This document shows positions 1 through 55,273 of a stretch of DNA of 64,000 bases, piece after piece. Origin of the DNA: an uncultured archaeon (GTDB lineage: Archaea > EX4484-52 > LFW-46). The stretch spans positions 3,425 through 67,424 of the forward strand of contig CABMCT010000031.1 in the NCBI GenBank assembly GCA_902384675.1, given 5' to 3'. Numbering within the stretch: position 1 is the stretch's first letter; each line of letters begins with the position of its first letter. The translations under genes and the position numbers were made by a program. A model generated the notes under the pieces. It was not told the origin of the DNA. It made no database searches and worked only from the letters and a program-made list of their open reading frames with translations.

Positions 1-316
1 TCATGTTTGTAGTAAGAAGGCGGACTCCGCAATTTATGTCGTACCCGATTCCTCCGGGCGATATGACCCCTCCTTCTTTCGGGTCAAAGGCAGCAACTCC
101 GCCTATCGGGAATCCGTATCCCTCGTGCGCATCCGGCATTGCCAGCGCATGTTTCTGTATTCCCGGGAGGCACGCGACATTTGATGCCTGCTGCAGGGTT
201 TTGTCAAGCTTTATTTTTTCCATCAGCTTGTCGGAAGCAAAAACAATGTCAGGGACATTCATTTTGCCCTCTTTTTCAATCGACCATGAAAAATCGTTTA
301 TGCGGGTGAGTTTCAT
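1..316 (-). CDS. rtcB: tRNA-splicing ligase RtcB, N-terminal part (gene continues beyond window start)
   Basis: Minus-strand translation from ATG at 316..314: [34 protein letters not shown]...[54 protein letters not shown], the conserved RtcB N-terminus. Absent from the ORF track because it runs off the window. Confidence 0.8.
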
Positions 317-706
317 AGAATCACAAGGAATATTTGGTGGAGAAGGTTTATAACGAAATGAATTATGGCGGGAAATGCTTCGACATCACTTTTTATACCC
401 TCGCGCTAAACTATATTCGGCAAATGATGATACTGACCTACTCTGAAAAAGGATGAAGAGAGATGGGCGGACTGATGCCAAACTTCCACAAAAGTTTGAT
501 CATTGGTGTGACATTCGCTCGCGCGAAGTCACATATTCTCGCGATTTTGAAGCCCTCCGGGCTTCACGCTTTTTTGGTAAGCTTGCCAAAAAAGCTAAAA
601 TCACTCGACTTTGTGATTTGGCTCTCAGAACCCATAAGAAATCATTTCGCTGCCTGTCGATGGCTTTTCTGCATTTTTAAACTTTGGACGCCAATTAAGC
701 GCAAAT

Positions 707-4574: not shown

Positions 4575-4692
4575 GGATGTATATTGTGCCGAAAAATATA
4601 TTAAGCTTATAAGAATTCAAAAAAATCATGGCACTCGTATGTCAAGCTTTTCATTCCGAAGAAGTTGATGAATGAATAAAAATTAGCGGCTC

Positions 4693-4736
4693 TATAGAGA
4701 CAGTGAAGAAGATTTTATCTCTATAGAGCCTAAAAA
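4693..4736 (-). terminator. Perfect 13-bp-stem hairpin followed (minus sense) by a T-rich tract; likely terminator of the pilin-like gene
   Basis: ggctctatagaga...tctctatagagcc inverted repeat immediately 3' of the 4756..5223 gene. Confidence 0.45.
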
Positions 4737-4755: not shown

Positions 4756-5223
4756 TTAGCAGGTTACTCCTGGTCCTGCCGTCGTCGGGTCGCATGTGAA
4801 TGAGATGTCATAGCCGCCGGGGGTTGCAAGCCTTATTATCTTGGTTTGAGCCACGCTCGGGAAGCTTACATTTGTATTTATTGTCAAAACCTGGTTTGGC
4901 GCAAGCGACTGGCCGCTAAAACCCGTGATTGTTGCAGCCTGGCCGTTCAAATAGTATGCTGTTCCTGCAGCTCCAAGGTCCACTGCCGTTGTTCCCGTGT
5001 TTCTAAGGGCGATCGAGATGTTTGAAAGCGAGTTATTCCACATGGAATCCGCTTTAAGGGATGTCTGGGCCTGCTGCTGTATTTGGTTGACTCCCTGGGT
5101 TCCTGTATCCTGGGCACCCTTTTGCAGACCGCCTACCCACATGTAGGCTAATCCCGCTGCTGCAACAGTCATCATGAGCAGCAAAACAATCGCCACAACC
5201 GCCGTTATTCCTTTTTTTCCCAT
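4756..5223 (-). CDS. Archaeal type IV pilin-like protein (class III signal peptide)
   Basis: MGKKGITAVVAIVLLLMMTVAAAGLAY: short charged N-terminus followed by a hydrophobic helix; Thr/Gly/Asn-rich body. Confidence 0.7.
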   Translation of the reverse strand: MGKKGITAVVAIVLLLMMTVAAAGLAYMWVGGLQKGAQDTGTQGVNQIQQQAQTSLKADSMWNNSLSNISIALRNTGTTAVDLGAAGTAYYLNGQAATITGFSGQSLAPNQVLTINTNVSFPSVAQTKIIRLATPGGYDISFTCDPTTAGPGVTC

Positions 5224-5324
5224 TTTTAATCAACTCCATTTTCATTGGATTAAAAAGCTTTCTGCGTTAGCAGAATGATGTATTTCACCTAATTTATTGA
5301 GATTTAACGCATGATTGAAAAATA

Positions 5325-6285: not shown

Positions 6286-8052
6286 TTATTCGTAATAAAC
6301 GCCTTTTTCTTTCTGCTTTGTATCTTTCTGAGAATCCGGCTTATTTGCCCTAGGCCTTCCGGATTCTGTTTCTCTCCTGAATGTTATATTCAAGTCTTTC
6401 AGAAATTCATTCATGCCTTCTTTGAGAGCTTTTGGCGCATTTGCGTGCCCTTCTATGGCGGCTTTGCCGAAAAAGATAATCGAGCGGTCGGAAACGTAAT
6501 GGAGAAGAAGCATGTCGTGGTCGATAATCATGCATGTTTTCTGGTTTGCCTCGACAAACTTGCGCATCATTTTTGCGAATTTCACTCTCTGCTCGACATC
6601 AAGGTACGCAGACGGCTCATCAAGCAGGTAAAATTCTACATCCTGCCCGAGGCATATTGCAATTGCAACTCTTTGCAGTTCTCCTCCCGAGAGGCTTGCA
6701 ACCCGGTTATCAAGCAATCCTTCAAGCTCAAGCGGGCGCAAAATTTCCATCTTGAATTCCTGCGAAAGGAATTTCTTGACGCTTCCTGAAAGCAGCTCGC
6801 CGACAGTCCCTGAAAAATCGCTTTTCAAATATTGCGGCTTGTATGCAATCCGCACGGTTTCGGCGAAATCAACATTGTCCGGCTTTACTTCCCCGGCAAG
6901 CATTTTTGCAAACGTTGTTTTTCCAAGAGCATTCGCCCCGAAAACACCGACTATTTCCCCAGCCATAAGCGAGCCGGCATCCACTTTTAGCGAGAACCCC
7001 GAGTCCATGAACTTTTTCCGAAATTCAGGATAGCTTACAACGCTGTACTTTCCCTTAAAAATCTGGCCTGCTGTCCTGAAGTCAAGTGCCTCCTGCCTGA
7101 ATCTTATATTCTCCTCGCGTATGAATCCGTCAAGATATGTGTTTATGCCGCGCAGGGAATGGTATGGCGCGGAAATAATCCCGTAAACCCCTGCATGGCC
7201 GTATACAAGATGCACGATGTCTGCAAGAATATCCAAGGTTGCAAGGTCGTGCTCTACCACAAGAACTGCTTTCTCTGCTGCAAGTTCTTTTATCGCTTTT
7301 GCAACAATGACACGATGCCTTACGTCCAGAAAAGACGACGGCTCGTCAAAGTAATAGAAGTCCGCATCCTTGCATATCGCTGCGGCAATTGCAACTCTTT
7401 GCAGTTCTCCTCCCGAGAGGTCTGCTATATTTCGCAAAAGTATGGATTCTATCTCAAGCTTTTTTGCAATATCTGCGAGAACTTTTCTTTCATCTTTTAG
7501 TAAGTCAGATACTTTTCCGTTTATACTTGCAGGAATTTTGTCGACCTGCTGCGGCTTGTAAACTGCCCTGATTTTTTTGTCGCGCAAATCCTTAAGATAA
7601 GTCATCAATATGCTTCCTTTGAATTTTGCAATTATTTCATCCCATTCGACACCCTTATCGAAATTTCCAAGATTTGGTTTTAGATTCCCACTTAGAATTT
7701 GTAATGCTGTAGTTTTTCCTATTCCGTTTGCGCCAAGAAGCCCGACCACTTTTCCTTTTTCAGGGATGGGCAGGCCATAAAGCCTGAACGAGTTCTTGCC
7801 GTACTGGTGGATGGGGTCGCTTAATTCCTGCTCTATGTTGATAATTGTGATTGCATTTTTAGGGCACTTTTTTGTGCAGATTCCGCATCCGACGCATAGC
7901 TCCTCCGCTATGTAAACCTTCCCGTTCTTCTCGAACACCGTCTCATCGCCGGTTCTTACTCTTGGGCAGAATCTGATGCATGGCTTGTCGCATTTATCCG
8001 GCCTGCACTTCTCCCGGTCGATGACTGCTATGCGTTTTGGCATACAAACCAA
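6286..8052 (-). CDS. abcE1: ABCE1 / RNase L inhibitor (ribosome recycling factor)
   Basis: 588 aa; N-terminal 2x[4Fe-4S] (CRPDKCDKPCIRFCP, CVGCGICTKKCP) plus two ABC cassettes (Walker A GANGIGKT and GANALGKT, LSGGELQRV signatures). Confidence 0.95.
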   Translation of the reverse strand: MVCMPKRIAVIDREKCRPDKCDKPCIRFCPRVRTGDETVFEKNGKVYIAEELCVGCGICTKKCPKNAITIINIEQELSDPIHQYGKNSFRLYGLPIPEKGKVVGLLGANGIGKTTALQILSGNLKPNLGNFDKGVEWDEIIAKFKGSILMTYLKDLRDKKIRAVYKPQQVDKIPASINGKVSDLLKDERKVLADIAKKLEIESILLRNIADLSGGELQRVAIAAAICKDADFYYFDEPSSFLDVRHRVIVAKAIKELAAEKAVLVVEHDLATLDILADIVHLVYGHAGVYGIISAPYHSLRGINTYLDGFIREENIRFRQEALDFRTAGQIFKGKYSVVSYPEFRKKFMDSGFSLKVDAGSLMAGEIVGVFGANALGKTTFAKMLAGEVKPDNVDFAETVRIAYKPQYLKSDFSGTVGELLSGSVKKFLSQEFKMEILRPLELEGLLDNRVASLSGGELQRVAIAICLGQDVEFYLLDEPSAYLDVEQRVKFAKMMRKFVEANQKTCMIIDHDMLLLHYVSDRSIIFFGKAAIEGHANAPKALKEGMNEFLKDLNITFRRETESGRPRANKPDSQKDTKQKEKGVYYE

Positions 8053-8093: not shown

Positions 8094-8624
8094 ATGCCAA
8101 AAATTTCTGTTCAAAAGCCAACGCGATTGATACACCACAATCCGGTCTGTCTTGTGACTTCAAAATCCGATACTGTTGAGAACGTATTTACAGCTTCGTG
8201 GGTCATGCCTGTTTCAAACAACCCGCCGATGGTTGCGCTCAGCGTTGCAAAATCTCGTTTCTCGTATGGGCTGATAAAGAAAAGCGGCGCGTTTGTGCTT
8301 AATATCCCGAACAAATCAATGCTAAAAGAAGTCATTTACTGCGGCAGCGTCTCAGGCAGGGACAAGAACAAATTCGCGGAAATGAAGTTCCAAAAAGAAA
8401 TGTCGCCCCATGCAAATATCCTGCTTTCAAAATGCATAGCATATCTTGAGTGCAAAGTTACCAAAGAAATCGAGGTGAGCGATCGCACTATTTTTATCGC
8501 GGAGATTATTGCAAACGGTGTCCAGAAAGGATTGTTTGAAAACGACAAATGGATTCTTTCGGAAAAATCGGAAATACTTCTTTATTTGGGCGACGGGAAA
8601 TACTGCACAGTTAGACCGGTTTGA
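8094..8624 (+). CDS. Flavin reductase-like FMN-binding protein
   Basis: VCLVTSKSDTVENVFTASWVMPVSNNPPMVALSV split-barrel flavin-reductase signature. Confidence 0.75.
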   Translation: MPKISVQKPTRLIHHNPVCLVTSKSDTVENVFTASWVMPVSNNPPMVALSVAKSRFSYGLIKKSGAFVLNIPNKSMLKEVIYCGSVSGRDKNKFAEMKFQKEMSPHANILLSKCIAYLECKVTKEIEVSDRTIFIAEIIANGVQKGLFENDKWILSEKSEILLYLGDGKYCTVRPV

Positions 8625-9324
8625 ACGCTTCTATAACGACAAGCTCTTCCCAATCAAACTTCTGCCGCGCAATTGCTTTTGCTGAGAAACCGATTTTTTT
8701 GAAGTGCAGCAGTGTTTTTTCATAGCGCGAAAGCGAGGATTCCAACAAGATTATTTTTCCGTGCGGATTCAGGAATTTTGGCGCGTCTTTTAAGAATCGC
8801 TCAATTATTTGCCTTCCGTCTTTTCCGCCATCAAGCGCGATGTTTTTGTAAATCGGTTCATCAGGCAGATACGGCGGATTGAAGACAATCAAATCAAATT
8901 TCCTCTCACTTGCGTTCGAGGCTTTTGAGGATTTTCCAGCTTGTCTGGAAATCATGCCTTGCGGCAAGCTTTTCAACCTTCGGTTGAAAAAGCCGAGAGT
9001 GTAACGAACGGACTCCCTATTCCTCAAAATTCCTTTTACATTCGCGAATAAATCGCTTTTGTGAAATTCTGCATTTTTTATTTTGTTCTGTTCGGCATTT
9101 TCTTTTGCGCACTTTACAGCTTCCGGGTTTATATCAACTGCAAGAACATGTTTCGCTTTCTTCGCTAAAACCAGCGCGATAATTCCGCTTCCTGTTCCGA
9201 TTTCCAAAACATTTTTCCCTTCTAAATTCAAATTCTGGAGCGCAGAAATCAGGAGAAATGTGTCTTCGGCGGGCTCGTAGACGTTTCCTGAAGTTTGGAT
9301 TTGAAAACCGTAAAGTCCGAGCAT
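8611..9324 (-). CDS. HemK/PrmC-like SAM-dependent methyltransferase (NPPY) with an in-frame ~37-aa repeat-derived insertion
   Basis: VLEIGTGSGIIAL motif I and LIVFNPPY motif IV. Segment ESVRYTLGFFNRRLKSLPQGMISRQAGKSSKASNASE between them is encoded by a dispersed-repeat copy (8915-9015). Confidence 0.8.
   Translation of the reverse strand: MLGLYGFQIQTSGNVYEPAEDTFLLISALQNLNLEGKNVLEIGTGSGIIALVLAKKAKHVLAVDINPEAVKCAKENAEQNKIKNAEFHKSDLFANVKGILRNRESVRYTLGFFNRRLKSLPQGMISRQAGKSSKASNASERKFDLIVFNPPYLPDEPIYKNIALDGGKDGRQIIERFLKDAPKFLNPHGKIILLESSLSRYEKTLLHFKKIGFSAKAIARQKFDWEELVVIEAFKPV
8915..9015. mobile_element. MITE-like dispersed hairpin repeat copy inside the hemK-like CDS
   Basis: 84 bp identical to 32819-32902; contains hairpins gcttttcaacc/ggttgaaaagc and ttccag/ctggaa. 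Confidence 0.7.
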
Positions 9325-9451
9325 ACAATCTCCTAGAATATCATGCCTTGCGGCAAGCTTTTCAATCCAGTAAATCCTTTCACTTCGTTCTAGGCTTTTT
9401 AGCCCAAAGTGAAAGGTGAATGGCTAAAAATGGATAATGATTGAAAATGAG

Positions 9452-9724
9452 CGAGCCTGGAGGGATCTTCAGCGGCTTCGGATAGTATTCTGTGACATCA
9501 ACTTCGTTGATGTCGCTCGTTTTTCTCTTTCTACCCGGATTTCAAACCATTCACCAACCGCTTTGGGTTGGAAAGCTTACCAATCGCAATTGGCATGATT
9601 TGTCTATCTCTTTTTGGAAAAAAGAGAAAGAAACCGTTTTTGAACCCCCGACCCCTGGCTTAGAAGGCTTACACGGAATATTTGCATAATCCACAGTGCT
9701 CTATCCAAGCTGAGCTACAGGCCC
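9452..9724 (-). tRNA. tRNA-Arg(UCU) with two non-canonical introns (in anticodon stem ~29/30, 25 nt; in T-loop ~59/60, ~172 nt); CCA not encoded
   Basis: Exon1 GGGCCTGTAGCTCAGCTTGGATAGAGCACTG (9724-9694); exon2 GCCTTCTAAGCCAGGGGTCGGGGGTTCAAA (9668-9639), anticodon loop CTTCTAA; exon3 TCCCTCCAGGCTCG (9465-9452). Exon3 completes the T-stem (GGGGG/CCCTC) and a 7-bp acceptor stem against GGGCCTG. Confidence 0.5.
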
Positions 9725-9762
9725 GTACTCCTTAATTATTGCAGAAAAAGAATTTAAAGAGA

Positions 9763-10040: not shown

Positions 10041-10286
10041 TTACCTTCTTAGATTTTTAAGAAACTCTTCTTTATCAATTCCTGCCAAATCCAATATGCC
10101 GAGTAAGGTCCCGATTTTGACTTCCTTATGCATCGGAACAACAGTAACTTTCTTTTGTTTACTTAGGGTATTTTTTAGAATTACATGACTCCCGCTCTGC
10201 CTGATGGCCTCAAAGCCGAAATCTTTAGCAAGAATCTTAACTATTTCCTTTCCTGAAAGCTTAGGCAAGTTCGACACTAATAGCAC
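10041..10286 (-). CDS. hicA: HicA-family mRNA interferase toxin
   Basis: LSGKEIVKILAKDFGFEAIRQSGSHVILK...VPMHKEVKIGTLLGILDLAGI, YcfA/HicA signature. Confidence 0.8.
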   Translation of the reverse strand: MLLVSNLPKLSGKEIVKILAKDFGFEAIRQSGSHVILKNTLSKQKKVTVVPMHKEVKIGTLLGILDLAGIDKEEFLKNLRR

Positions 10287-10479
10287 CTACCGTTTTAATG
10301 CTTTTTAATTCCTCTCTCACTTCAGGCATTTCTTCAAGATAAAGCTCTACTGCCTCTTTTATATTTGCCATGGCTTCTTCTATTGTTTTTCCTTGCGTGG
10401 TTACGCCGGTAATAACTTCCTTGATAACATACATGTCTTCTTCTTTCCATACGACGGTCTGCAATTCCATAGAATACAT
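10261..10479 (-). CDS. hicB: HicB-family antitoxin
   Basis: 72 aa UPF0150-like (TQGKTIEEAMANIKEAVELYLEE); overlaps hicA by 26 nt. Confidence 0.8.
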   Translation of the reverse strand: MYSMELQTVVWKEEDMYVIKEVITGVTTQGKTIEEAMANIKEAVELYLEEMPEVREELKSIKTVGAISVELA

Positions 10480-13040: not shown

Positions 13041-14765
13041 ATCAAATCAAAAAGTACACAACCCGAAGGTATAGCGTCAATCTATGTCTTAAACAAAAAC
13101 AAAGACAGTAAAACAGAAATAAACGGGTCATCAGAAAGTTAGGTTAAAACGTGCACAGGAGCGTAGAATCATTCCCTGCAATTATTTGCCTGTTTTTTTA
13201 GTGCAGATTGATACATACATGCTTCTAACACAGGCGGACATGTGCCAAGAACTTGGATTTGCGGTTAGAAACTGCATGCGTAACCCTAGGCTATATTGTG
13301 TGTTTAAACTATATAAAGCTTTTCGACGATTGTCTATTTAAACGTAGTGATATGCCACATGTGAGTAACTATTAAAAAGTTATGAGCAGGTCATTGTCAT
13401 GTTTTTCAAAACAACTTTATTCATAAAATATACGGTTTTTTCTTTAATCTGATTTATGTCTTTTAGACGTAGTCAGGTCGAGGCATCGCGAATATAATTC
13501 GGGATGACAAAAAAGCCGGTGACGAGAGACACAGTAGACGCTGTGGGTAGTTCTACTTCTAGATTACCACGGCTGAATTGTCTTTGGTCAATTACAATCA
13601 TACCATCTGATGAAACGGAAGAAAAACGTCGAGGGGATGGTGCACGAGCAACGCCGTGCGAGCAATTTATTGCTCATGAGAGTTGCCAAAAGTATGGAGG
13701 CAAAGTATTATGGAGAGAACCAGTTTGGTAAAAAAGAGGTTTCAAAACCTCGGAGTCGAAAGTGACAGCTGCGGGATAATTGGAGGCGGTATAGATGGCG
13801 GAGAAATCGGGTTCTGAACCAGAGATTGACAAGACCTCAATAATTGCTCGGTTCGAAGAACTTTCGTCGGAAAAACAAGAAGCGCTCAACGCGCAGGTTG
13901 AAATCGTGGCGGAAAAGGAAGGCAGGATAATTTAACTGCAGTTCTGTGTAATGGACGAAGCGCCCACTCCCTTTGTCCATTACTTTTTTACGATGATAAA
14001 TAATTAACAGGAGGTGAAACATGAAGCAAAAAGGAAGAACTGGGAGGACTAAAGATAGGATAAGCCGAAGAAACCGATTAGTGAACCACGGTTAGTCGCG
14101 AGCTTTCTTTCTTTTAATTTCTTAATTTTTCCTTTTTTTACATTCATAACCCACTCAAGGGTTTTGAAGCAGGCGAAGTAGTGGCAACGTCTTCTTTAAA
14201 TAAATCCACTTTGGGCGCCGCTGTTCTTAGCAAACAATGCCTTTTTAGGGCATCAATTAGGACGGCGGCAAACAGTTTTGCAGTAACTCTTTTTTCTCTA
14301 AAAAAGAGGGGATGGACAGTTGTGGAAAAAAGTGACGGCAAGCGGTGGCGTTTGCCGGAGGTAAAATATGCGAGCTATTCAAGGAATACATAACAAGCGG
14401 ATCGGTGGATCCGGTAAAGAATCGTGGAAATATGGTGGAAACCGAGGGGATTCAAATGCAGGCAGTTGGCGACCTTTCTAGCGGAGAACTAGGGGGTGCT
14501 TTGGGACAAAATCCGCTCTTGCGGATAATAGCCTATGCGGAGCGTAAGGTTATTGACGGTATACGCGGATTGGCGTTGCGCCTAGGGCTCTATGTCGAGC
14601 CAGAGGAGCGACCTATACTCACTGCCGTTCGTATACCTGATGTGGTGACGTTCCAAGGCATTAGAAGGTCTTGCGTGGTTAAGCGCCTTCTGGATCCTTT
14701 TGGAAGAATAGTTGAAACATACTATCTCTTTTCAGGAGGTGCATCCTCCCCTACTTTTTTTCTCT

Positions 14766-18490: not shown

Positions 18491-18601
18491 TTTTCGCTCG
18501 CAGCATAGTTTGATGACGAAAAATCCGTCGCGACACCTTATGAACCATTGATTGTGTCGCTTTCGGCTTTTAAATCCAATGAATATGGGGAATGATTTAA
18601 A

Positions 18602-20752
18602 ATGGCAGATTATATCCGTATAGATGTCGCGTCCGAAATAAAAAAGCTCGTTCCTGTTCTTGGAAAAGAGAACGCCCTTAAAATCGAGCAGGCGTACCTG
18701 TTGGGCGACGAGGAGATGAAAAAGCGCGTAATCGAGATGCTTGATTCTGTAAAAGCTGCTGCGTATGCCGACGAAAGCCTCAAAAATGCGGTTCTTCTTG
18801 AGGCGCCTTCGCGCGAAACAGCATCATGCGGGGATATTTTTGCAGGCACGGTGCTTTATGGCCAGAAAAGGCTCTACCCGTTCCTTCTTGACCGAAATAT
18901 GTTCCTCACGCATCTCGGGATTTTTGGCTCCTCAGGCTACGGGAAAACCAATGTGGTCCATAATCTTGTCCGCGAATTATCCGAAAAAAGCGTCCCTGTT
19001 CTTATTTTCGACTTCTCAAAGCGGAATTACCGCGACCTCATCAATATCCCGGAATTAAAGGAGCGCGTACAGATTTTCACTATCGGAAGAAACGCCTCGC
19101 CTTTTAAATTCAACCCGCTTTACCCGCCGGAAGGTGTTGAAATATCGCAGTGGATTAAGGAATTCGCAGAGATTTTCGACCATGCATACTGGCTTTTGGG
19201 CGGAGGACGGCATATTATTCTTAAAGTGCTTGATAAGGTTTACAAAAATCCTAAACCCTTCGATTACCCCCAATTACGGGCCATAAAATACGTATTGGAC
19301 GAGCTTGAAAGCGACAAGAATTCCGCAAGGGAGAGGAACTGGATTGTGACTGCGCAAAGGCCCCTGGAATCGCTGTGCTTCCGCGAAACAGGGCAGATAT
19401 TTGATACGAATAAAGGCATTCTTCCCTCGACTTTCTTTGAGGGGCAGAAAATCACAATCCTTGAGCTTGATTCCCTTACCACGAACGACAAGACTTTTTT
19501 CATCGAAATCATGCTGCAGTGGATACGCGACTGGCTTATCGTGAAGAACGCAAAGGAAAAGCTGTCAGGTGTTATTGTTCTTGAGGAGGCGCACCATGTC
19601 CTGAACCGCGAAAAATCGAAAAAAATGGGTGCTGAAAGCGTTATTGACCTTGTCTTTCGTGAGGTGCGAGAGCTTGGCATGGGCATAATCTATGTCGACC
19701 AGCATCCGTCCCTTATCAGCTATCCTGCTCTTGGGAACACGAGCACGCACATCTACATGAACCTGGGGCTTGATACGCAATATTCCTCTGATATTCAGGA
19801 TGCGTGCAGCATGTTGGGCCTGGATTACCGGAGCGAGGGCAAATACCTGCGCCAGCTGCCTGTAGGGGACGGCTTTCTGCTTTGCAGGAGATTGAGCTTT
19901 CCGCACCCGTTTTTAATACAGTTCCCCCTTGCAAAAATAGACAAGGGCTCAGTAACCGATGATATTGTAAAAAGCATTGCGCCAAAGCTTCCGGATGACG
20001 AAATCACAGTTCCTGCGGTCCATGGCCTTCATAGAAAAAAAGAAATCTCTGAGACCCATGAAACTCCTGCGGTGCATATTCAGGAAGTGGCACAGGAAGC
20101 ACCAGTACCCCCGCAAATTCCATTACCTCCTCCTGAAATCGAGAGGCAGCAAAGCAATAATATCATAAAACACAATCTTCCTGAAAGCTGCCTGAAGATT
20201 CTGCGCGTCCTGGGCCGCTTTGATGCATCTGCAACTTCTGAAATTTACAAGGGAATTTCAATGTCGGGCAGCACATTCAAGCAGAATGCGGACCGGCTAG
20301 TCAGCGAAGGGCTCTTGGGCGCAAGGACTGCAAAAGTGTATCGCCAGACATCGATTTTCTACTTCCTTACCAATAAAGGCGCAGCGCTTTTCTCAGGCAC
20401 TTTCAGCATGCTGCACGAGGATATCAATGCGGAGGAATTTTACAACGCTGCAGAGCGGCTTTTTAAGGGCGAGGGATGGGCTGTTGACCGGAGCAAAAGC
20501 ATCTGGACGCTTTTGCGAAAAGACAAGCAGGTGAACGTGATTCTTGTATCGGGGCTTGAGAGGGCCCAGCTTTCCGGCCAGGTTGCGAATGAAAGTGCTT
20601 ATTTTGTTGCTGCGACAGAGCATATCAAGAATGCAATAATCCAGATGGCAGCAAAGCGGGTGAGCGAGACCGGAAAGCCGTTTATTCTGTCTGTTTCTTC
20701 GTTTGAGGCGCTCCATAAGGGCGAGAAATTCAGAAAACTGGCGTTTGAATAA
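18602..20752 (+). CDS. HerA/FtsK/VirB4-superfamily ATPase with ~240-aa C-terminal extension (predicted wHTH plus unknown domain)
   Basis: Walker A GIFGSSGYGKTNVV; HerA-type Walker B VIVLEEAHHV; IIYVDQHPS (QRP-like) motif; C-terminal LPESCLKILRVLGRF...EIYKGISMSGSTFKQNADRLVSEGLL helix-turn-helix. Confidence 0.8.
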   Translation: MADYIRIDVASEIKKLVPVLGKENALKIEQAYLLGDEEMKKRVIEMLDSVKAAAYADESLKNAVLLEAPSRETASCGDIFAGTVLYGQKRLYPFLLDRNMFLTHLGIFGSSGYGKTNVVHNLVRELSEKSVPVLIFDFSKRNYRDLINIPELKERVQIFTIGRNASPFKFNPLYPPEGVEISQWIKEFAEIFDHAYWLLGGGRHIILKVLDKVYKNPKPFDYPQLRAIKYVLDELESDKNSARERNWIVTAQRPLESLCFRETGQIFDTNKGILPSTFFEGQKITILELDSLTTNDKTFFIEIMLQWIRDWLIVKNAKEKLSGVIVLEEAHHVLNREKSKKMGAESVIDLVFREVRELGMGIIYVDQHPSLISYPALGNTSTHIYMNLGLDTQYSSDIQDACSMLGLDYRSEGKYLRQLPVGDGFLLCRRLSFPHPFLIQFPLAKIDKGSVTDDIVKSIAPKLPDDEITVPAVHGLHRKKEISETHETPAVHIQEVAQEAPVPPQIPLPPPEIERQQSNNIIKHNLPESCLKILRVLGRFDASATSEIYKGISMSGSTFKQNADRLVSEGLLGARTAKVYRQTSIFYFLTNKGAALFSGTFSMLHEDINAEEFYNAAERLFKGEGWAVDRSKSIWTLLRKDKQVNVILVSGLERAQLSGQVANESAYFVAATEHIKNAIIQMAAKRVSETGKPFILSVSSFEALHKGEKFRKLAFE

Positions 20753-22502: not shown

Positions 22503-22578
22503 GCCCGGATAGTGTAGTGGCCTATCATGAAGGACTATCAATCCTTCGACCCGGGTTCAAATCCCGGTCCGGGCGCCA
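22503..22578 (+). tRNA. tRNA-Asp-like gene with anticodon ATC (A34) and encoded CCA
   Basis: GCCCGGA acceptor paired with TCCGGGC, T-arm CCGGGTTCAAATCCCGG, anticodon arm GAAGGA-CTATCAA-TCCTTC. Body matches the archaeal tRNA-Asp(GUC) family except G34A and C38A. Confidence 0.75.
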
Positions 22579-22989: not shown

Positions 22990-23376
22990 ATGCTCAAACA
23001 GCTTGCGCCTCTTCTTAAAAGGGCAAAAAAAGACAAGGACATAGTTGCAGTCATGCTTTTCGGCAGCGCAGCACGGGGCGAGAAATACCGCGATATCGAT
23101 GTTGCACTTGTGCTTAGAGCAGGCATAGATAGCGGTTCCATGTTTGATAAGCGCCTTGATTACTTGGGGGAGTTCTCTAATCTCGACATTCAGATATTTA
23201 ACCAGCTGCCGCTTTATATCCGGCAAAGGATACTTAAAGAGGGAAAGATATTGCTCCAAAACGATACTGATGCGCTTTACGATATTGCATTTGATACCAT
23301 ACGCGCTTATGAGGACTTCAAGTCTATTTACGAAGGATACCTTGAAGCTATAGAAAACCAATATGCTACTGCATAA
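22990..23376 (+). CDS. MNT-type nucleotidyltransferase antitoxin (MntA-like)
   Basis: VMLFGSAARGEKYRDIDVALV matches GSxxRGxxxxxSDIDv. Confidence 0.8.
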   Translation: MLKQLAPLLKRAKKDKDIVAVMLFGSAARGEKYRDIDVALVLRAGIDSGSMFDKRLDYLGEFSNLDIQIFNQLPLYIRQRILKEGKILLQNDTDALYDIAFDTIRAYEDFKSIYEGYLEAIENQYATA

Positions 23377-23388
23377 CAGGTTATTGCT

Positions 23389-23811
23389 ATGCTTGACAAA
23401 AATCGTATACTTGTAAAGCTGGACGAGATAGGCGGCTATTTATCAGAGCTTGAGGAAATAGCGCCGGATAGCTTTAGCGAGTACAAATCATCCATAGAAA
23501 AGCGAAGGGCGTGCGAGAGGCTTCTTCAAATAGCGATTGAATCTGTGGTTGATATTTCCCAATCCATCGTTAAAGGAATGCTGCTTGGCATGCCGAAAGA
23601 CGAGGATAGCATCTTCGAGACTCTTGCAAAGAAGAACCTCATCACAGAAAACATGGCAGGGACGCTGCGGGATATGAAGAATTTCAGGAACATCTTAGTG
23701 CACAGGTACGGGGTAGTGGACGATGCCAAAGTGTTCACGGCAATGAAAGCGCGTATCTTGGATTTTGAGGAGTTCAAAAAAGTAGTGCTGGAAATAGTAA
23801 AAGCATCCTAG
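23389..23811 (+). CDS. HEPN-domain toxin (HepT/DUF86-like)
   Basis: FRNILVHRY Rx4-6H HEPN motif near the C-terminus; 13 nt after the MNT gene. Confidence 0.8.
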   Translation: MLDKNRILVKLDEIGGYLSELEEIAPDSFSEYKSSIEKRRACERLLQIAIESVVDISQSIVKGMLLGMPKDEDSIFETLAKKNLITENMAGTLRDMKNFRNILVHRYGVVDDAKVFTAMKARILDFEEFKKVVLEIVKAS

Positions 23812-24520: not shown

Positions 24521-26737
24521 TTAGTATTTATACTTTTCTTCCTCCCACTCCTTCGCTTTCCCTTTCTCGTGCGCGGCTTTGGAGAAAACGCCGTGGTCGA
24601 CCTCAGGCACCAATATCATGCCTTTTAGCGGGTCAAGGCCATGCTCCCGTATTGCGTGATGCTGCGCTGCCCAGAGAGTCTCGTCAATCCCGTAGAATCT
24701 TGGCGGAAGGTCGTTTGGCTTTGTCTCTTTCTGCAGCTCGGCAACCATGTTCCTGAATGCAATGGCACTCTGGTCAATGCCAAAAGAGCCCATTTCCCAG
24801 ATAAAATACGCGTCCTTCATGCCCTTCTGGCGCAGGCTGAAAAGCCAGCCGTAGAGGACAAACATATCGTGCGACATGATATAAATCGGGGAATGGGCGC
24901 CTATTATCGGCCTTGGGGCGTTTATGTGCATCATTTTTATGTACTTGGCATCGCCATCCTTGAGGCTTGCTATATCCTGATCTACCCTTACAAAGTTTAC
25001 CGTGAGGTGCTCGAAGTCCATGGTGTAGCCGGTTATTTCGCCTTTATCCAGATGCTTGATAAGCGTGACATGATCATGCGCCGACATTACCCTTAATTCA
25101 CCCTCCTGGCCTTCGGGCGGCATTGCGGTTTCAATGAAAATCATCATTTTTGCGTCTTTTGTGTAGCTGTAGACTGATTCGTCTTTGAGGTGCTTGTATT
25201 CCGGGAATTCCGCAGCCATCCCCCATAAATCCCCTGAGACAAACAAATGGCCTTCGATGTATTTGCATGCGACTGCTGTGATGAGCTTTTTGACAAGGTC
25301 TTCTATAACTGTTTTATCTTCTTTACTATGCTCTTTATGTTTTTCGGAAGGTTCCACTTCTTCTCCAAGAAGCTCTTCTTCTTTAAAAATATTTTTGTCA
25401 TATTTTGATTTTCCTTTATCAGCGCATTTAATGATTATATCAGGGTCGTAGTCGCCTACGATATCCGTCCATAGAGGGTCGCGTGTCCAGTACATGAATT
25501 TTGCAATAACGCGATATGCAACTTGTTCCTCGCATTCGGAGCCTTTCGTCTTCCAGAAATCGAAAACTTTGTCAAAGTCGGTAGTCTTGAGGTAATACAA
25601 AACATGGTCATATATCTGATATATTTTGTATATTTTTGAAAGCTCGCCTAATGCATCTTCAAGCGTTTTTCCATTGTTCAATTCACGGATCATCAGTTCG
25701 TCCTTTTCACGTTCAACAGCGTAATCAAAAGACAGGTATTTTTCTGGCTTTCCGCTGTTGATTTCAGCGATTACTGCATTTGACGCAGAAGCTTCTCTGA
25801 AAAGCTGGTTATATTGCGGATTATTTCTTAGATTCTGGTCGACAGCTAACTCCAAGTCCTCTCCTTTAACTCCTCGGGATATCAGATATTTCCTAAGTTG
25901 TTCTCTTAATACATTCATTTGCGATTGGGCTTGAGTAAATATCTTTGTGTACCTTTCCAGCATGATTTTTTTAACCTTCTCATCCCATATTTTATCTCTG
26001 AGAGCGGTGTGTCTTTTTCCAGCCTCTTTTGCTCCGTCACTGAAGTTATCAAATGTTTCCATGAATGTTAGAACACCGACATCCCCGGAAAGCCCCATTA
26101 CATGAAAAAGCACTTTTGTAAACTTTGCTTTAAACCACTCGCGCATGCTTTGTCCTTTTGGCAACGTGATTTTTTTCCCTGTCTTTGGGTCTTTAAATTC
26201 GCCTTTATCAACAGCGTCGATCCATTGCCCTAAATTCGTTCCGTCAAACGAGTTCTGCTGTACCGGCGGCTCCTGATGCCCTACAGTAAACGTGACATGC
26301 GGCCTTATTCGCGAGGAAGTGTGGAAAAGAAAGAACTTTGAGCCTATGATTTCTTTTGATGAATAAGCTCCCTTGCGCAGGATTTCATGCATTTCCTTCC
26401 ATTCAAAGGCATTTGCTATGCAGAGGTCGACTTTTACAGGCAGGTGCAGGCCGACTTCCATTTTTTGGACGTCCTTGACGTGCATTATCAGTTCCTTGAC
26501 GTGGGGCTCGTACATTTCAGAAAGCGCTTCATAATCTATTTCGGTAAAATCAAAGCCAAGGCGCGCTGCTTTTACTATCTTTCTCGCCAAGCCCATGTTT
26601 ATCAGGCGCTCTTCTCCCTGTGCAACACTGGCAAAACCCGGGCTTGCTCCAAGAATGTAGCCGACAGGGTGGTTTTTGGCATCCCATCTGCCGTTTATGT
26701 GCGGCTGTTTCTTTTGTTCGTGGCCATGCTCGGACAT
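24521..26737 (-). CDS. Large hypothetical protein (738 aa from MSEHGHEQ; the ORF's upstream 69 codons look non-coding)
   Basis: ggaga SD 9 nt before ATG at 26737; no family recognised by eye. Confidence 0.6.
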   Translation of the reverse strand: MSEHGHEQKKQPHINGRWDAKNHPVGYILGASPGFASVAQGEERLINMGLARKIVKAARLGFDFTEIDYEALSEMYEPHVKELIMHVKDVQKMEVGLHLPVKVDLCIANAFEWKEMHEILRKGAYSSKEIIGSKFFLFHTSSRIRPHVTFTVGHQEPPVQQNSFDGTNLGQWIDAVDKGEFKDPKTGKKITLPKGQSMREWFKAKFTKVLFHVMGLSGDVGVLTFMETFDNFSDGAKEAGKRHTALRDKIWDEKVKKIMLERYTKIFTQAQSQMNVLREQLRKYLISRGVKGEDLELAVDQNLRNNPQYNQLFREASASNAVIAEINSGKPEKYLSFDYAVEREKDELMIRELNNGKTLEDALGELSKIYKIYQIYDHVLYYLKTTDFDKVFDFWKTKGSECEEQVAYRVIAKFMYWTRDPLWTDIVGDYDPDIIIKCADKGKSKYDKNIFKEEELLGEEVEPSEKHKEHSKEDKTVIEDLVKKLITAVACKYIEGHLFVSGDLWGMAAEFPEYKHLKDESVYSYTKDAKMMIFIETAMPPEGQEGELRVMSAHDHVTLIKHLDKGEITGYTMDFEHLTVNFVRVDQDIASLKDGDAKYIKMMHINAPRPIIGAHSPIYIMSHDMFVLYGWLFSLRQKGMKDAYFIWEMGSFGIDQSAIAFRNMVAELQKETKPNDLPPRFYGIDETLWAAQHHAIREHGLDPLKGMILVPEVDHGVFSKAAHEKGKAKEWEEEKYKY

Positions 26738-27275
26738 TTTTAAACATCTCCTTCTTCTTTGGTTTAAAAAGCTTGGAAACTGCATTTGCACCTTGGTATG
26801 CAAAGCTTGGAAATTCTTGCGAATTTCCATGAGTTTCCATGATTTCAAATCATTCCTCAATCTACTTGGATTTGAATCATCTCGTTCGCATAGCGAACTC
26901 GAAGCTTTTGGGAACCCTAAATCCCAAAAAGCTTGAAAGCGCAACTTATGCGCAAGCTTTCATGATGACAATCTATTGGTGAAGAGGGTATATAAAATCT
27001 GATATGATTTTTAAGCCGCGCTTCCACAACTTAAAATCCGTTCGCTATCGCTCTCGGCTTTTCAGACTTTGTCTGAAAAAGCGTGAAACTCGAATAAGCC
27101 GCAAGGAAGTTTCATGATTTTTATATACTCCTGTTTCCAATAATATTCAGTAATCTAATTTGGTGATATTATCGGAATTCTTGGCAAGCTCAAATCCAGT
27201 TTCGGTGGGGGGAAAAGCGATATTGACTCGAAAATAGACTCGGCATTCTCAAACCCCAACATTTCCGGAAAACTT

Positions 27276-27816: not shown

Positions 27817-28071
27817 ATGCCAGTTAAAAGAAAATCAAGGCCTTCTGAGAAAACCGAAGTCAAGCGACTCTATCGCTCGGGAAAAGACCGCATTCTTGGC
27901 GGCGTTTGCGGCGGGATTGCAGAGTATTTTAATGTCGACCCCACGCTAATCCGGCTGCTCTGGGTTCTTTTCACGCTCGCTTCTTTTGGCACCGGGATTC
28001 TGCTTTACATCATTGCCTGGATTATTGTGCCGAGGAATCCGAGAGATAAGTCATGGAACTCCTTGGCATAA
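27817..28071 (+). CDS. PspC-domain membrane protein
   Basis: [35 protein letters not shown] followed by a TM helix. Confidence 0.8.
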
Positions 28072-29653
28072 ATGCGAGTTCCAAGCTTTCGAACCCAAAT
28101 TGGTTGCGAATGGTTCGAAATGGGAATAAACCTCACAATTTCTGAAGAACTAGCGGGATTAGATGAAATATCGGGCTTTTCGCCCAATACATAATCCAAA
28201 TGGCGAAAAGTCTGTTCGCTTGCTCTCAGCTTTACAGCCCAAAGCATCTGCGAATGGCTGTAAATCTTCTCACTTCGCCTTATTAACCATTAATAGCTCC
28301 GTTCGAGGCTCTTCATTCCAAAGAAGTTGGCGAATGAATGAAGATGGTGTGGAGAGTAAGCCCCCTTTTGTTTGGCCCGTCTCTGTCTCTGCTTAATTTG
28401 CAGGACTGGTGGGCGTTATCGCATTAGACTCCTCTCACTTTCGTGAAAGACGCGAATTGCTTCGCGCGCGTCGTTCGACTTGCACGCATGGACGGTCATG
28501 AAAATCTTTGCAGATTTTCAAGCTTTCCAAGTTCGTAAGAACCTGGAAATCGTTTCATCCTTATTCCGGAAACGTCGAATACTCTCATTCTTAACCGGAG
28601 GAGGTATCGTTTCTAATCCGTTGCCGCGCCTCCCGGCGCCCTGGTTTTCCAGGATTAAATGCCTTGCGGCATCCGTGGGGGGACTTTCCTCAATTCCTTA
28701 AAGCGCCATATCACAAGCAGGCGCTCTGAACGCCAACCTATGACAAAACACCCAAAAACCACAGCAACCCTTCCACACCACGCCATTATTACTTGCTCAA
28801 CTATTTAAATTTTAACTCCCCTTTCTTCTCCCAATTTTTCCAGATTTTGAGGCTGCCACGAATCCGAATCGCGCATGTCTTTCGTGTCTTTTGTTGTCTT
28901 TCGCCTGTCTTTCGCTTCGTTTTATAGGGCTTTGTTTACGCCAGTTGATATTCACGAGTGAATAAATTAGTAAAGAGACCTGAGTAGCGCAAATTCTTTT
29001 CAAAAATGGGTGCAAAAGTGTTTTACGTCGGATTTCTCAGGAGAAATGGTCGAAGAGCTGGCAGGAAAGTGGCTGAAAGTGCGGCTGTTGATAGAAGATG
29101 CACTACAGCTGAGCGAGAAAAGTCATGAAAATCTCTATGCAATGTGCAGATTTTCAAGCTTTTCAACCCAATGCAGTTGGCGAATGGTTGAAAATGAGAC
29201 TTTTGACCTTGTAAATCCTTTCGAGTGGCGCTCTAGGCCTTTCAATCTTCGGTTGAAAACTCAAGCTTGACCATAATCATATAGAAGATACAAGAAGGCA
29301 ATGGGCGAGATAGTGTGTGTGGCTAAGCCGGGAGGATATGTGCTGATAACCGTAGTCAATCCGCCTAAAGAGAGCGAATGTATGAAGGGATGAGAAAGGC
29401 AATCTGCGCTATAAAGCGAGCCTTTTTAACGATTCGCGAGGAAAGCCAGTATTTATGAAGCTTTACAGACGCTCGAGAGAAGAATATATGCGCGCCATGC
29501 AAGCCGCGGGCCTGGAAGTGCTTGAAGCAGTCGCGCCAACGCTTGAAGAGCTGGGGAAGTTGGGCCGCTGAAGGAGAAAGATGCGAAGAAGTTTGACAAA
29601 GACGCAATGAATGTGAGAGTTAATTTGGTGATTTTGGGAAGAAAATGCTTTAA

Positions 29654-32057: not shown

Positions 32058-32612
32058 TCATACACCGGGATGCGCAGGAGGTGGCTTTGGTGCCTCGGTT
32101 TCGCTTTTCCCCTCACCCTTCGTAGCAAACCCAATAACCGCGATGATGAATAAAAACACTAGCCCGATTGTTATGTCGTCGCTGCTTAATCCTAAGGAAA
32201 TGCTTCCTCCGGAAGCCTGGGAAAAAACCACTGCTGCGAACAATACCAGGGCGATGAAGATTATCGAGTACCATTCCTTGTTCTTTTCTGTAATTATTGT
32301 TTTATCAAACCCAAGAACCCCGATGAAAATTATCAATATAACCAGCGTTGCAAGTATCTGCGCCATCGAGCCGAAAAGAGTGCTGTAATAAGCCGAAATT
32401 CCGCCAACAGGAGTGAAATTGACTATGAAAAAAGCAAGAACAGCCGCGATTATTGCGTTTACCTGTTTGGCGCTTTTGTCTTTTTCATCACCGAAAATTG
32501 CCACCTTTGTCAGTACTCCAAGAATCACTGCAAAGAACAAAAGCCATGGCAATACGAAGTCGTAGAATCCAAGACGCTGCAAATTTCCCACAATACTTGT
32601 TAAATCGACCAT
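32058..32612 (-). CDS. Paralogous small polytopic membrane protein, copy 2
   Basis: First 30 aa MVDLTSIVGNLQRLGFYDFVLPWLLFFAVI are identical to copy 3; 110-bp near-identical DNA tract (32358-32467) shared with copy 3. Confidence 0.6.
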   Translation of the reverse strand: MVDLTSIVGNLQRLGFYDFVLPWLLFFAVILGVLTKVAIFGDEKDKSAKQVNAIIAAVLAFFIVNFTPVGGISAYYSTLFGSMAQILATLVILIIFIGVLGFDKTIITEKNKEWYSIIFIALVLFAAVVFSQASGGSISLGLSSDDITIGLVFLFIIAVIGFATKGEGKSETEAPKPPPAHPGV

Positions 32613-32818
32613 TTTTTATCATTCTCCATATTTATTGGATAAAAAAGCCTGGAAACCGCAGTTTCCATGATTTTTTATCATTCTCCATTTTTAACCATTC
32701 ACAATTATTATTGGGTTGAAAAGCTTGACACGAAGCCATCTCGATAAATCTCGAAGGCTTCCAGCTTGAAAAGCTGGAGGTGTCATGATTTTACTTGGAT
32801 AAAAATCATCTCGTTTTA

Positions 32819-32920
32819 CTCGAGGCTTTTGAGGATTTTCCAGCTTGTCTGGAAATCATGCCTTGCGGCAAGCTTTTCAACCTTCGGTTGAAAAAGCCGA
32901 GAGCGCAAGCGAACGGATTA
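32819..32920. mobile_element. MITE-like dispersed hairpin repeat copy (intergenic), twin of the copy in hemK-like gene
   Basis: 84 bp identical to 8915-8998. Confidence 0.7.
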
Positions 32921-35711: not shown

Positions 35712-35991
35712 TTTTGACCATCTCCATTAATTATTTTCCTTTCGCTCCGGGCTAAATCTGCGAAAATCTTCGGATTTTCGCAGATTTCGGAAATACCTCT
35801 TGGTATTTCCTGTATTTCCGAAATGAGGAAATGCTCGCGCATTTCGGAAACCTTGAAAAGCTTTGCTTTTCATGGAAGCCGAGAGTTCCGCGCACAATGG
35901 TTAGTAGGGCGAAACGAAAGGATTTTTAATCATTCACTAATGCATTGGGTTAAAACAAGGTATATTAAAACCAAAATATTAAAAAGATATT

Positions 35992-52083: not shown

Positions 52084-52932
52084 TTAATCGCTGCGCATAA
52101 GATCCATGACGTCGTTTTTGTTTCCGCCAGCAGACCTTAGCATTTCCAGTGCCCATGAAATATCGCCTACTTTTGAAGCATGGTGCGCATCGGAGCCGAT
52201 GCTGAATTTTACGCCATGGAACCTGCATATCCTGATAAACTCAGGCGGAGGCACGCAGTAGTTCGTGTTTATTTCAACAGCCTTCCCGTGTGCACCAATA
52301 AAGCTGGCAAGATTGTGCATTTCGGTTTCATCAGGCATCGTGATGTTGAACTTATGCAATAGGTCAAAAGGATGGCCTATGATATCGACTGATTTGTTCC
52401 TGCATATCGCCCTGAGCGCCTCAAGGTATACTTCCTTTGTTTTATGCGGGTCCAGCTTCTGTATAGTCGTGTCCCCTTCCATTATGTTCAGGCCAGGAAT
52501 CCTGTGAAGAGAGCAGACAATAAGTTCTGCACGATTTTCTGCGGATTTTGAAATGTCCAATGTTCCGTTCATATCAAGAAGCTTGGTTTCAAATCCGAGA
52601 ATCACTGCGGAGCCGCTGCTTTTTCTTCCATTTTCTACAGCTTCGATGTATTTGTCAACCCATGGAGAGCCAGCCCTTATATGTTCGGTTATTGCAATCT
52701 TTGCAAGGCCCTTTTCATTTGCAGCCCGAATCATATCCTGGACGCTTGAGTCCCCGTCGGTAAAATTCGTGTGCATATGAAAATCGGATTTTATTTCCAA
52801 CGCTCGAAAGCGCTGTTGGATCCGTTCGCTTGCGCTCTCGGCTTTCCAACCCAAAGCAGTTGGTGAATGGTTGCAAAAGGTTTGAAACTCGTGCCTTTTG
52901 CAAGCGAGTTTCATGATCTTTATTTCTTCCAT
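52084..52932 (-). CDS. PHP-domain phosphoesterase
   Basis: HMHTNFTDGDSSVQDMIRAANEKGLAKIAITEH; N-terminal ~40 aa repeat-derived. Confidence 0.75.
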   Translation of the reverse strand: MEEIKIMKLACKRHEFQTFCNHSPTALGWKAESASERIQQRFRALEIKSDFHMHTNFTDGDSSVQDMIRAANEKGLAKIAITEHIRAGSPWVDKYIEAVENGRKSSGSAVILGFETKLLDMNGTLDISKSAENRAELIVCSLHRIPGLNIMEGDTTIQKLDPHKTKEVYLEALRAICRNKSVDIIGHPFDLLHKFNITMPDETEMHNLASFIGAHGKAVEINTNYCVPPPEFIRICRFHGVKFSIGSDAHHASKVGDISWALEMLRSAGGNKNDVMDLMRSD

Positions 52933-54889: not shown

Positions 54890-55075
54890 TCACATCACCT
54901 GCAGCGCGTATTTACCCGGCACTGCAATTCCCGCCTTTTTCGCGATTTCGGAATCAGGGCTGAATACGACAATTACTCCTTTCCAGTTGGTTGTCAGGTC
55001 GTTTGATTTGCATACGTCGCATTCGTTTCCTTCCTCAATCAGGCGTTTACAAACCCTGCATGCGCGTTCATTCAT
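54890..55075 (-). CDS. spt4: Transcription elongation factor Spt4 / RNAP subunit E''
   Basis: ACRVCKRLIEEGNECDVCKSNDLTTNWKGVIVVFSPDSEIAKKAGIAVPGKYALQV. Confidence 0.8.
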   Translation of the reverse strand: MNERACRVCKRLIEEGNECDVCKSNDLTTNWKGVIVVFSPDSEIAKKAGIAVPGKYALQVM

Positions 55076-55273
55076 TTTTAACCATCTCCAATAATCATAA
55101 TTTTCATTTGCTCTGGGTTAAAAAGCCGAGAGTTCCGCACATAATGGTTAGTAAGGCGGAACGAACGGATTTCCAACAATTAACATATTGCTTTGGGTTG
55201 GAAAGCTTGATATGTTAATATCATGATTTTTCGCCGTTAACCTAATGCATTAGGCGAAAATATCTTTTTCACC

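Follow-up and report, generated by a model that had tools for sequence, protein, structure and literature searches.

Can a tRNA gene that is broken at two unusual places, once in the T loop by a long segment carrying repeated sequence, still work as a tRNA gene? This question is raised by a locus in a 64,000-nt stretch of contig CABMCT010000031.1, from an uncultured DPANN archaeon (the whole stretch is called the window below; its G+C content is 43.9%). On the minus strand, at 9724..9452, three exons of 31, 30 and 14 nt are separated by two introns of 25 and 173 nt, and the exons together make up a tRNA-Arg(UCU). A preliminary description, made from the letters alone, had recognized this gene and suggested that a mobile element had inserted into it. 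The analysis presented here indicates that the locus is very probably a functional gene whose two introns are spliced out at bulge-helix-bulge (BHB) motifs, and that the size of the T-loop intron is probably due to insertion of dispersed hairpin modules. The gene is considered most likely functional because its exons are conserved, both introns are found in all orthologues, and the BHB pairings are kept by compensatory changes.

Anatomy of the tRNA-Arg(UCU) Gene

Exon 1 (9724..9694, 31 nt, GGGCCTGTAGCTCAGCTTGGATAGAGCACTG) supplies the 5′ strand of the acceptor stem, the D arm with GCTC/GAGC, A26, and C27-G29 as positions 27-29 of the anticodon stem. Intron 1 (9693..9669, 25 nt) follows at position 29/30. 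Exon 2 (9668..9639, 30 nt, GCCTTCTAAGCCAGGGGTCGGGGGTTCAAA) starts with G30-C31 and continues with the loop CTTCTAA, in which the anticodon TCT lies at 9664..9662, then with GCCAG, the variable loop GGGTC, the 5′ strand of the T stem (GGGGG), and TTCAAA, which corresponds to T-loop positions 54-59. Intron 2 (9638..9466, 173 nt) is placed at position 59/60. Exon 3 (9465..9452, 14 nt, TCCCTCCAGGCTCG) consists of T60, CCCTC, the 3′ strand of the acceptor stem (CAGGCTC), and the discriminator G73; CCA is not encoded at the 3′ end. This anatomy agrees with the preliminary description in the non-canonical positions 29/30 and 59/60 and in the 25-nt skip within the anticodon stem. A large T-loop intron is also present as described, with a length of 173 nt rather than 172 nt, and the gene runs on the minus strand.

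When both introns are taken out by hand, the predicted junctions are ...GAGCACTG joined to GCCTTCT... between exons 1 and 2, and ...GGTTCAAA joined to TCCCTCC... between exons 2 and 3. ARAGORN identifies this spliced sequence as tRNA-Arg(tct), 76 nt, with a canonical cloverleaf, and reports no tRNA-Arg for either version from which only one intron was removed. The T stem and the acceptor stem of the spliced form are paired at all 12 positions (5 + 7), including G2.U71 and G50.U64, just as had been counted by eye. By direct reading, the conserved tertiary positions U8, A14, G18G19, U33, A37, T54-A58 and G53-C61 are in place. The unspliced gene escapes the standard finders: ARAGORN calls only two other tRNAs in the window, and Rfam misses the gene at the gathering threshold and also at relaxed cut-offs (E<=10 for the surrounding 600 nt, E<=1 for the window as a whole).

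A TATA-box-like sequence, TTTAAAT, is located at 9752..9758 on the minus strand, 34 nt upstream of tRNA position 1. All six orthologues described below have the same box at about 32-34 nt before position 1, and its likeness to the archaeal TATA consensus suggests a promoter element. In the 43 long ORFs (open reading frames) of the window, AGA accounts for 22% of Arg codons, and a tRNA-Arg(UCU) is therefore needed. No second tRNA-Arg(UCU) gene was found within the 64-kb window. A low-threshold ARAGORN call of 'tRNA-Arg(tct)' at 13210-13301 was rejected as a false positive with mismatched stems.

Conservation in Orthologous Loci

The gene was compared in six distinct orthologues, namely the window, L005, L006 (identical to L010), L007, L008 and L009. 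L005 to L007 are contigs that carry relatives, at 83-88% identity, of the ABCE1 encoded near the tRNA gene, and three more loci were obtained when metagenomes were scanned with 29 nt of exon 2, one of these being identical to L006. The five orthologues outside the window have the same three exons, which is more than would be expected by chance. Mean column identity of the spliced exons over the six orthologues is 98%, and the window and L005 agree in 75/75 positions. Exon 1 of the window is identical to that of L005 (31/31) and matches L006 and L007 in 30/31 positions; the first 29 nt of exon 2, that is, all except its last base, are exact in 5/5 of the other distinct orthologues; and position 59 together with exon 3 matches L005 in 15/15. 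Variation is confined to three exon columns, one at T-loop position 59 and the other two at positions 5 and 68. The latter two make the sole paired change, a compensatory one from C5:G68 to A5:U68.

Both introns are present in 6/6 orthologues, and an intron-less version in 0/6. In the order window, L005, L006, L007, L008 and L009, intron 1 measures 25, 37, 37, 139, 36 and 36 nt, and intron 2 measures 173, 25, 50, 25, 33 and 25 nt. The intron sequences cannot be aligned between orthologues. Near-identical exons beside unalignable introns indicate a gene under selection, not a decaying relic. Again, ARAGORN detects none of the three tRNA-Arg genes on L005 to L007. The six genomes thus give a snapshot of intron evolution, in which the sites are kept and the sequences turn over.

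The exact site of the T-loop intron is of two kinds. It lies at 58/59 in L005, L007 and L009, with a GTTC/GAAC helix and a conserved 25-nt intron, and at 59/60 in the window, L006 and L008, with a TTCA helix and a variable intron. Since this division does not match the division of the acceptor stems into C5:G68 and A5:U68, it suggests intron sliding, replacement or recombination.

Splice Signals at Both Introns

BHB-like motifs at the junctions had been set beforehand as the test of the gene, and they are present at both, relaxed at intron 1 and near-strict at intron 2. The geometry scored on each strand was a 4-nt central helix (H), a 3-nt bulge cut after its second base, and a flanking helix. 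In the window, the motif of intron 1 takes the relaxed HBh′ form, which has no outer helix and has been described before (PMC5829648). Its central helix is formed by GCAC in the exon (9699..9696, positions 24-27) and GTGT in the intron (9674..9671), paired 4/4; the bulges are TG↓T and AA↓G (arrows mark the cuts), and the inner helix GGA/TCC has 3 bp. The same elements occur in all orthologues, with GCAC/GTGT paired 4/4, bulges TG↓N and AN↓G, and an inner helix of 3-6 bp (counted in L009 after one first mismatch).

The motif of intron 2 in the window is hBHBh′-like. The T stem serves as the outer helix of 5 bp (GGGGG, 9649..9645, with CCCTC, 9464..9460), TTCA (9644..9641) and TGAA (9471..9468) form the central helix with 4/4 pairs, and the bulges are AA↓A and GA↓T. 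After one A.C mismatch, CGGTTTC (9636..9630) and GAAGCCG (9479..9473) form an inner helix of 7 bp. In the three orthologues of the 59/60 type, TTCA pairs with TGAA or TGGA, and the T stem is intact. For each orthologue there is a single register with H of 4/4 at intron 1, and likewise a single one at intron 2, where the inner helix has 4-7 bp and the outer helix 4-5 bp.

These motifs were compared with shuffled introns, in which the splice positions stayed fixed by the exons. H of 4/4 with an inner helix of at least 3 bp was reached at a frequency of 7e-4 for intron 1 and 1.4e-3 for intron 2, and H of 4/4 with an inner helix of at least 7 bp at 1.5e-5 for intron 2. Pair counts across orthologues were made on samples that are small but consistent. 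For intron 1 (five distinct sequences), pairing reaches 95.6% of cells and drops to 20-51% on sliding the partner strand; H does not vary, and 4/5 of the inner-helix pairs are compensatory. For intron 2, the count was restricted to the three sequences of the 59/60 type because MAFFT shifted the splice-anchored alignment of all six; here 97.2% are paired against 39-56% after sliding, and 4/5 of the inner pairs are again compensatory. In the minimum free energy structure predicted for the 273-nt precursor, the closing helix of intron 2, the T stem and the acceptor stem are all retained, and H is retained in part.

From these features, the following course of processing can be proposed. A precursor of about 273 nt would be transcribed from the TATA-like box, the archaeal tRNA-splicing endonuclease would recognize the BHB motifs and remove both introns, and RtcB would join the three exons into a normal 75-nt tRNA, to which CCA would be added afterwards. 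RtcB is an RNA 3′-phosphate ligase and the tRNA-splicing ligase of archaea. Its gene is represented in the window by the N-terminal 105 codons (2..316, minus strand), which are cut by the window edge and were found by tblastn with the RtcB of L005; the fragment has 86% identity to that protein (Pfam PF01139, E 1e-56), and L005 encodes RtcB in full length.

A Hairpin Repeat in the T-loop Intron

What fills the 173 nt of intron 2? A copy of a dispersed hairpin family was detected by nhmmer at 9603..9527 on the minus strand, corresponding to about nt 36-112 of the intron. It consists of AAATCATG, the hairpin CCAATTGCGATTGG, AAGCTT, and then a hairpin with a 9-bp stem and a 17-nt loop (TTTCCAACC...GGTTTGAAA). 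By BLAST, nt 63-94 of the intron match window positions 52841-52872 in 31/32 nt (E 1.4e-10), with weaker matches at 29156, 55190 and 28083, and repeat detection grouped 9536-9578 with five other sites in the window. The dispersed-repeat sequence noticed in this intron at the outset is thus found both by BLAST and by membership of the nhmmer family. The intron also contains two unique hairpins on the minus strand, TCTCTTTTTTCCAAAAAGAGA at 9607..9627, which includes a run of six T (T6) at 9623..9618, and GACATCAACGAAGTTGATGTC at 9494..9514, which has no other copy in the window.

The preliminary description had proposed a mobile element inserted into a tRNA. The repeat is indeed inside the intron, but an intact tRNA was not its target: since a T-loop intron exists in 6/6 genomes, with 25-50 nt in the relatives, the repeat appears to have entered or expanded an intron that was already there. 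Both introns are ancestral to the clade, and the apex of intron 2 would have taken up a member of the hairpin family and the two unique hairpins, presumably by insertion. The basal nucleotides that form the BHB motif, about 15 on each side, were left untouched, and splicing would therefore make the insertion harmless.

A parallel case is seen in the other intron of the same gene. In L007, intron 1 (2829-2967) is swollen to 139 nt by hairpins flanked by AAGCTT, and 30/31 nt of it match window positions 26784-26814. By its sequence, this seems to be an independent colonization of the other intron by the repeat. Because two introns in two genomes carry sequence that is repeated in the intergenic hairpin arrays of the window, there is good evidence for movement or copying of the hairpin modules and for their tolerance by introns.

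The Hairpin Family outside tRNA Introns

The family was defined by iterated nhmmer searches seeded with intron 2, over 79 positions. Its unit consists of AAAATCATG, a variable hairpin, CAAGCTT, and a 9-bp stem around a conserved 17-nt loop (CCAAAG...GGnGAAT). Over 20 copies, the stem is paired to 96%, 6/9 of its pairs are compensatory, and 0/500 shuffles reached the observed covariation. About 19 copies are present in the window, and more in L005, L006 and L007. Those of the window include copies at 4621-4696, 5212-5276, 9372-9442, 18558-18609, 26735-26788, 26827-26876, 28046-28130, 28206-28265, 28291-28349, 29118-29196, 32607-32675, 32679-32736, 35922-35955, 52832-52887, 55074-55143, 55169-55232, 55870-55945 and 55952-56015. 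They are frequently in tandem, in arrays between genes. No Rfam match to the family was obtained in the window at E<=1.

A part of the copies is connected with gene starts. In at least seven of them, the ATG after the stem is the start of a real ORF; examples are a HerA-like gene at 18602, an Rpb7-like gene at 55882, a gene at 32612, and an orthologous gene in L006 and L007. The loop of such copies reads GGAG, GGGG or GAGG in 6/7 cases, which resembles a Shine-Dalgarno sequence, and copies away from genes have GGTG, GGCG, TGCG, GATG or TGTG at this place. The copy in intron 2 has GGTG. As to the nature of the family, a 5′ leader, a promoter/terminator cassette and a selfish repeat are the candidates.

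The neighbour of the tRNA gene suggests that the modules also enter coding DNA. The methyltransferase ORF at 8611..9324 (minus strand) contains an in-frame, stop-free insert of 129 nt (43 aa) at about 8904-9032, between conserved motifs. The insert is hairpin-repeat sequence that splits the MTS domain and is absent from three orthologues, and its part at 8916-8999 is identical in 84/84 nt to a copy near 32,8xx. It was also considered as an mRNA intron of the BHB type; no in-frame candidate restores an orthologue-like protein, a convincing BHB motif for its removal from the mRNA was not found, and an in-frame peptide insertion is preferred. As for a target-site duplication, a 9/10 direct repeat (GGAAWTTTGA) flanks the insert, with its two copies 130 nt apart, which does not fit an insert of 129 nt. 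The spacer between this ORF and the tRNA gene (9325-9451, minus strand) has 127 nt, versus 23 nt in L005 and L007, and its extra sequence consists of hairpin modules including the family copy at 9372-9442 and 26 nt identical to 8951-8976 and 32855-32880. No Pfam match to a transposase was found among the approximately 50 window ORFs scanned.

Two side observations concern other places where copies of the family lie. A PHP-domain ORF (52084-52932, minus strand) has about 50 codons upstream of the domain, overlapping the copy at 52832-52887; either its start is mis-extended, or this is another N-terminal extension derived from the repeat. A match to archaeal RNase P RNA at 28347-28714 (minus strand; 60.6 bits, below the gathering score of 84, E 2e-14) is directly flanked by three hairpin copies at 28046-28349, and its low score may reflect a reduced or repeat-interrupted RNA.

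A wider reading, which is put forward tentatively, takes the hairpin modules to be an undescribed, mobile or self-propagating structured family of this DPANN clade. BHB introns may serve it as safe harbours, the tRNA gene may have been colonized twice independently, and the family may also form arrays ahead of genes, provide these genes with a Shine-Dalgarno-like loop and a start codon, and have entered the coding sequence of the methyltransferase in frame.

Weighing the Explanations

Several points weigh against a functional, spliced gene. At intron 1 an outer helix is lacking, and one strand of the central helix (G24-C27) is drawn from the D and anticodon stems; an endonuclease of broad specificity would therefore be needed. 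Broad-specificity EndA variants and disrupted tRNAs have been reported in several DPANN lineages (PMC5829648). In intron 2, the first inner pair is the A.C mismatch, and the 5′ bulge is effectively 4 nt. No splicing endonuclease (PF01974-type) was found among the approximately 50 window ORFs scanned with Pfam, although this absence is expected for 64 kb of genome and says little. The T6 run in intron 2 could be a weak archaeal terminator that ends some transcripts, and in the case of a recent repeat insertion, exons that are still intact in this one genome would mean little by themselves. Taken to the extreme, such points describe a pseudogene: the ancestral gene was functional, the insertion has killed expression here by T6, misfolding or length, and another gene supplies tRNA-Arg(UCU). 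Intron 2 of the window is by far the longest among the six orthologues, an alternative BHB-like pairing exists inside it (a=86, b=177), and the 84/84 identity of the methyltransferase insert to its counterpart near 32,8xx tells of recent repeat activity at the locus, so that exon decay might not yet show. However, the exons are still identical to those of L005 at every position, the base of the BHB motif is intact with its 7-bp closing helix, the TATA-like box is retained, and the window offers no other gene for this tRNA. On the sense strands of ORFs, 22 T6 runs stand against 81 A6 runs, a ratio expected from base composition; T6 is therefore not avoided in ORFs. L007 moreover tolerates an intron 1 of 139 nt in the same gene. 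A pseudogene is accordingly quite improbable. The T6 run, which comes just after the 5′ strand of the inner helix, could instead mark a gene on its way to becoming a split tRNA, in which a transcript of exons 1 and 2 ends at T6 and the 3′ part is transcribed separately, the two RNAs then pairing by way of the inner helix, the central helix, the T stem and the acceptor stem and undergoing trans-splicing. Position 59/60 is also a split site of tRNA-Glu in Nanoarchaeum equitans. In published models, split tRNAs descend from tRNAs with introns (PMC3293823, PMC3218864). Against this stand the lack of a TATA-like box in the 3′ part of intron 2 by direct reading, the co-oriented and collinear arrangement of the parts within 273 nt, only 173 nt apart, and a T6 run that is apparently no strong terminator here; this idea is very improbable.

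A different role for the long intron would be compatible with a functional gene. The module, or the excised and probably circularized intron, might be a stable small RNA. The structure of the 9-bp stem and its conserved loop appears to be maintained, as judged by the pairing and covariation given above, and for the entire pre-tRNA, folding predicts a stable arrangement of several hairpins (-92.1 kcal/mol). On the other hand, orthologues do with introns of 25-50 nt that have no module, no Rfam match on the minus strand is better than E=1.3, and the copies that end in the start codon of a gene point to a 5′-leader or selfish role rather than to a trans-acting RNA. We regard a functional intron RNA as unlikely. 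A C/D-box RNA hosted in intron 2 was ruled out: there is no exact C box (RUGAUGA), the single CUGA is part of the 3′ strand of the BHB motif, and no C/D family of Rfam was matched on the minus strand. That the locus resembles a tRNA by chance, or that an integrase duplicated a tRNA 3′ end at its att site, is almost certainly wrong. Nothing speaks for it beyond the failure of standard tRNA finders, and the comparison of orthologues refutes it, since six loci have their exons arranged alike and the T-loop site of the relatives holds just 25-50 nt; an integrase-like Pfam match is also missing among the window ORFs scanned. A spliced two-intron tRNA-Arg(UCU) gene thus remains the best explanation.

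Neighbouring Genes and Other Features of the Window

The order 90-aa ORF, tRNA, MTS-type methyltransferase, ABCE1 is shared by the window and L005 to L007, for which enough flank is available. The ABCE1/RLI gene (6286..8052, minus strand) adjoins the tRNA locus. Its nearest other versions are 83-88% identical, one of them from a metagenome-assembled genome labelled Nanoarchaeota archaeon, and further matches bear the labels Nanohaloarchaea and DPANN. In L011 and L012, whose ABCE1 is a more distant relative (64% identity), the synteny is lost, and neither the tRNA nor the hairpin family is present. In the contigs of species-representative genomes, the exact exon-2 30-mer had no match, and a locus search based on ABCE1 returned only unrelated bacterial ABC proteins; a close representative of the lineage is therefore missing from this set of species. 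Neither for the 90-aa neighbour nor for P0001 did an exact look-up give a record.

Elsewhere in the window, a tRNA at 22503-22578 (plus strand; Rfam, 62 bits) has the anticodon loop CTATCAA and hence the anticodon AUC (Asp), in which A34 is unusual, GUC being the norm. A weak match to a C/D-box small RNA is located at 420-478 (plus strand; snoPyro_CD, 29.9 bits, E 0.03, below gathering). Two toxin-antitoxin-like pairs were noticed, a HicA/HicB-like one at 10041-10479 (minus strand), judged by eye from the translations, and a pair of nucleotidyltransferase and HepT-like RNase at 22990-23811 (plus strand), identified by Pfam.

Relation to Known tRNA Introns and Significance

Among archaeal tRNA introns with an embedded structured element, that of the tRNA-Trp of Haloferax volcanii offers itself for comparison; this intron of about 100 nt at the canonical position 37/38 encodes a C/D-box guide RNA. 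Both are unusually long BHB introns, but the Haloferax intron has C and D boxes and a known function, whereas the intron described here has no C box and no Rfam match. The hairpin family itself recalls the REP/BIME palindromic repeats of bacteria and the palindromic elements of Rickettsia, which insert in frame into genes. Like these, it consists of short, dispersed, non-coding hairpins in tandem intergenic arrays, with one in-frame, stop-free insertion into a coding sequence. It differs from them in its archaeal host, in that no transposase was seen in the window, in the lack of a clean target-site duplication, and in the copies, at least seven, that provide start codons.

That tRNA genes can have BHB introns at non-canonical positions, and more than one of them, is well established for Thermoproteales, Thaumarchaeota and ARMAN-2 (PMC4033280, PMC8450103, PMC3239211), and the statement of the preliminary description that such introns are known from Thermoproteales and some DPANN agrees with this literature (see also PMC5829648). 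The closest example is the pre-tRNA-Cys(GCA) of ARMAN-2 (Ca. Micrarchaeum acidiphilum), where cleavage of a 13-nt intron at 59/60 by the epsilon2 endonuclease was shown in vitro (PMC3239211). It shares with the present gene the DPANN affiliation of the host, the T-loop position 59/60, the BHB type of the intron, and disrupted tRNAs that are missed by standard tools. In ARMAN-2, however, the intron has 13 nt, a relaxed hBH motif and proof in vitro, whereas here it has 173 nt, a near-strict motif and a dispersed repeat, and its splicing is deduced from the sequence. In Thermoproteales, a tRNA gene has up to three introns, and intron gain by transposition has been proposed (PMC4033280, PMC8450103). 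Several non-canonical BHB introns with relaxed motifs, fast-evolving introns beside conserved exons, and suspected mobile sequence are common to both cases. Thermoproteales belong to another superphylum, however, and in them, introns that resemble each other have been suggested to spread from one tRNA gene to another; in the present case, a repeat that lies mostly outside tRNA genes, in intergenic arrays, at gene starts and in one coding sequence, entered existing introns. A literature search found nothing relevant on repeats or miniature inverted-repeat transposable elements inside archaeal tRNA introns, within incomplete coverage, and no citable statement on the known length range of archaeal tRNA introns. 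The type of gene is thus already known, and what is new is the size of the T-loop intron, its colonization by a genome-wide hairpin family, and the parallel event in L007. With its repeat-swollen intron, the gene adds modestly to a phenomenon already described and does not represent a new type of system.

For the organism, the finding means that a clear and comparatively well-supported tRNA gene is missed entirely by standard annotation with ARAGORN and Rfam, and a DPANN gene set therefore looks incomplete for the tRNA of a common codon. Incomplete predicted tRNA sets have been reported for DPANN genomes (PMC5829648). For the family of introns, two different introns of one gene have been inflated from the same pool of hairpin repeats, which bears on how archaeal tRNA introns arise and grow and on how split tRNAs arise. 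If BHB introns are indeed safe harbours for such modules, colonization by repeats would be a general route of tRNA intron growth in archaea, and possibly a first step towards split tRNA genes.

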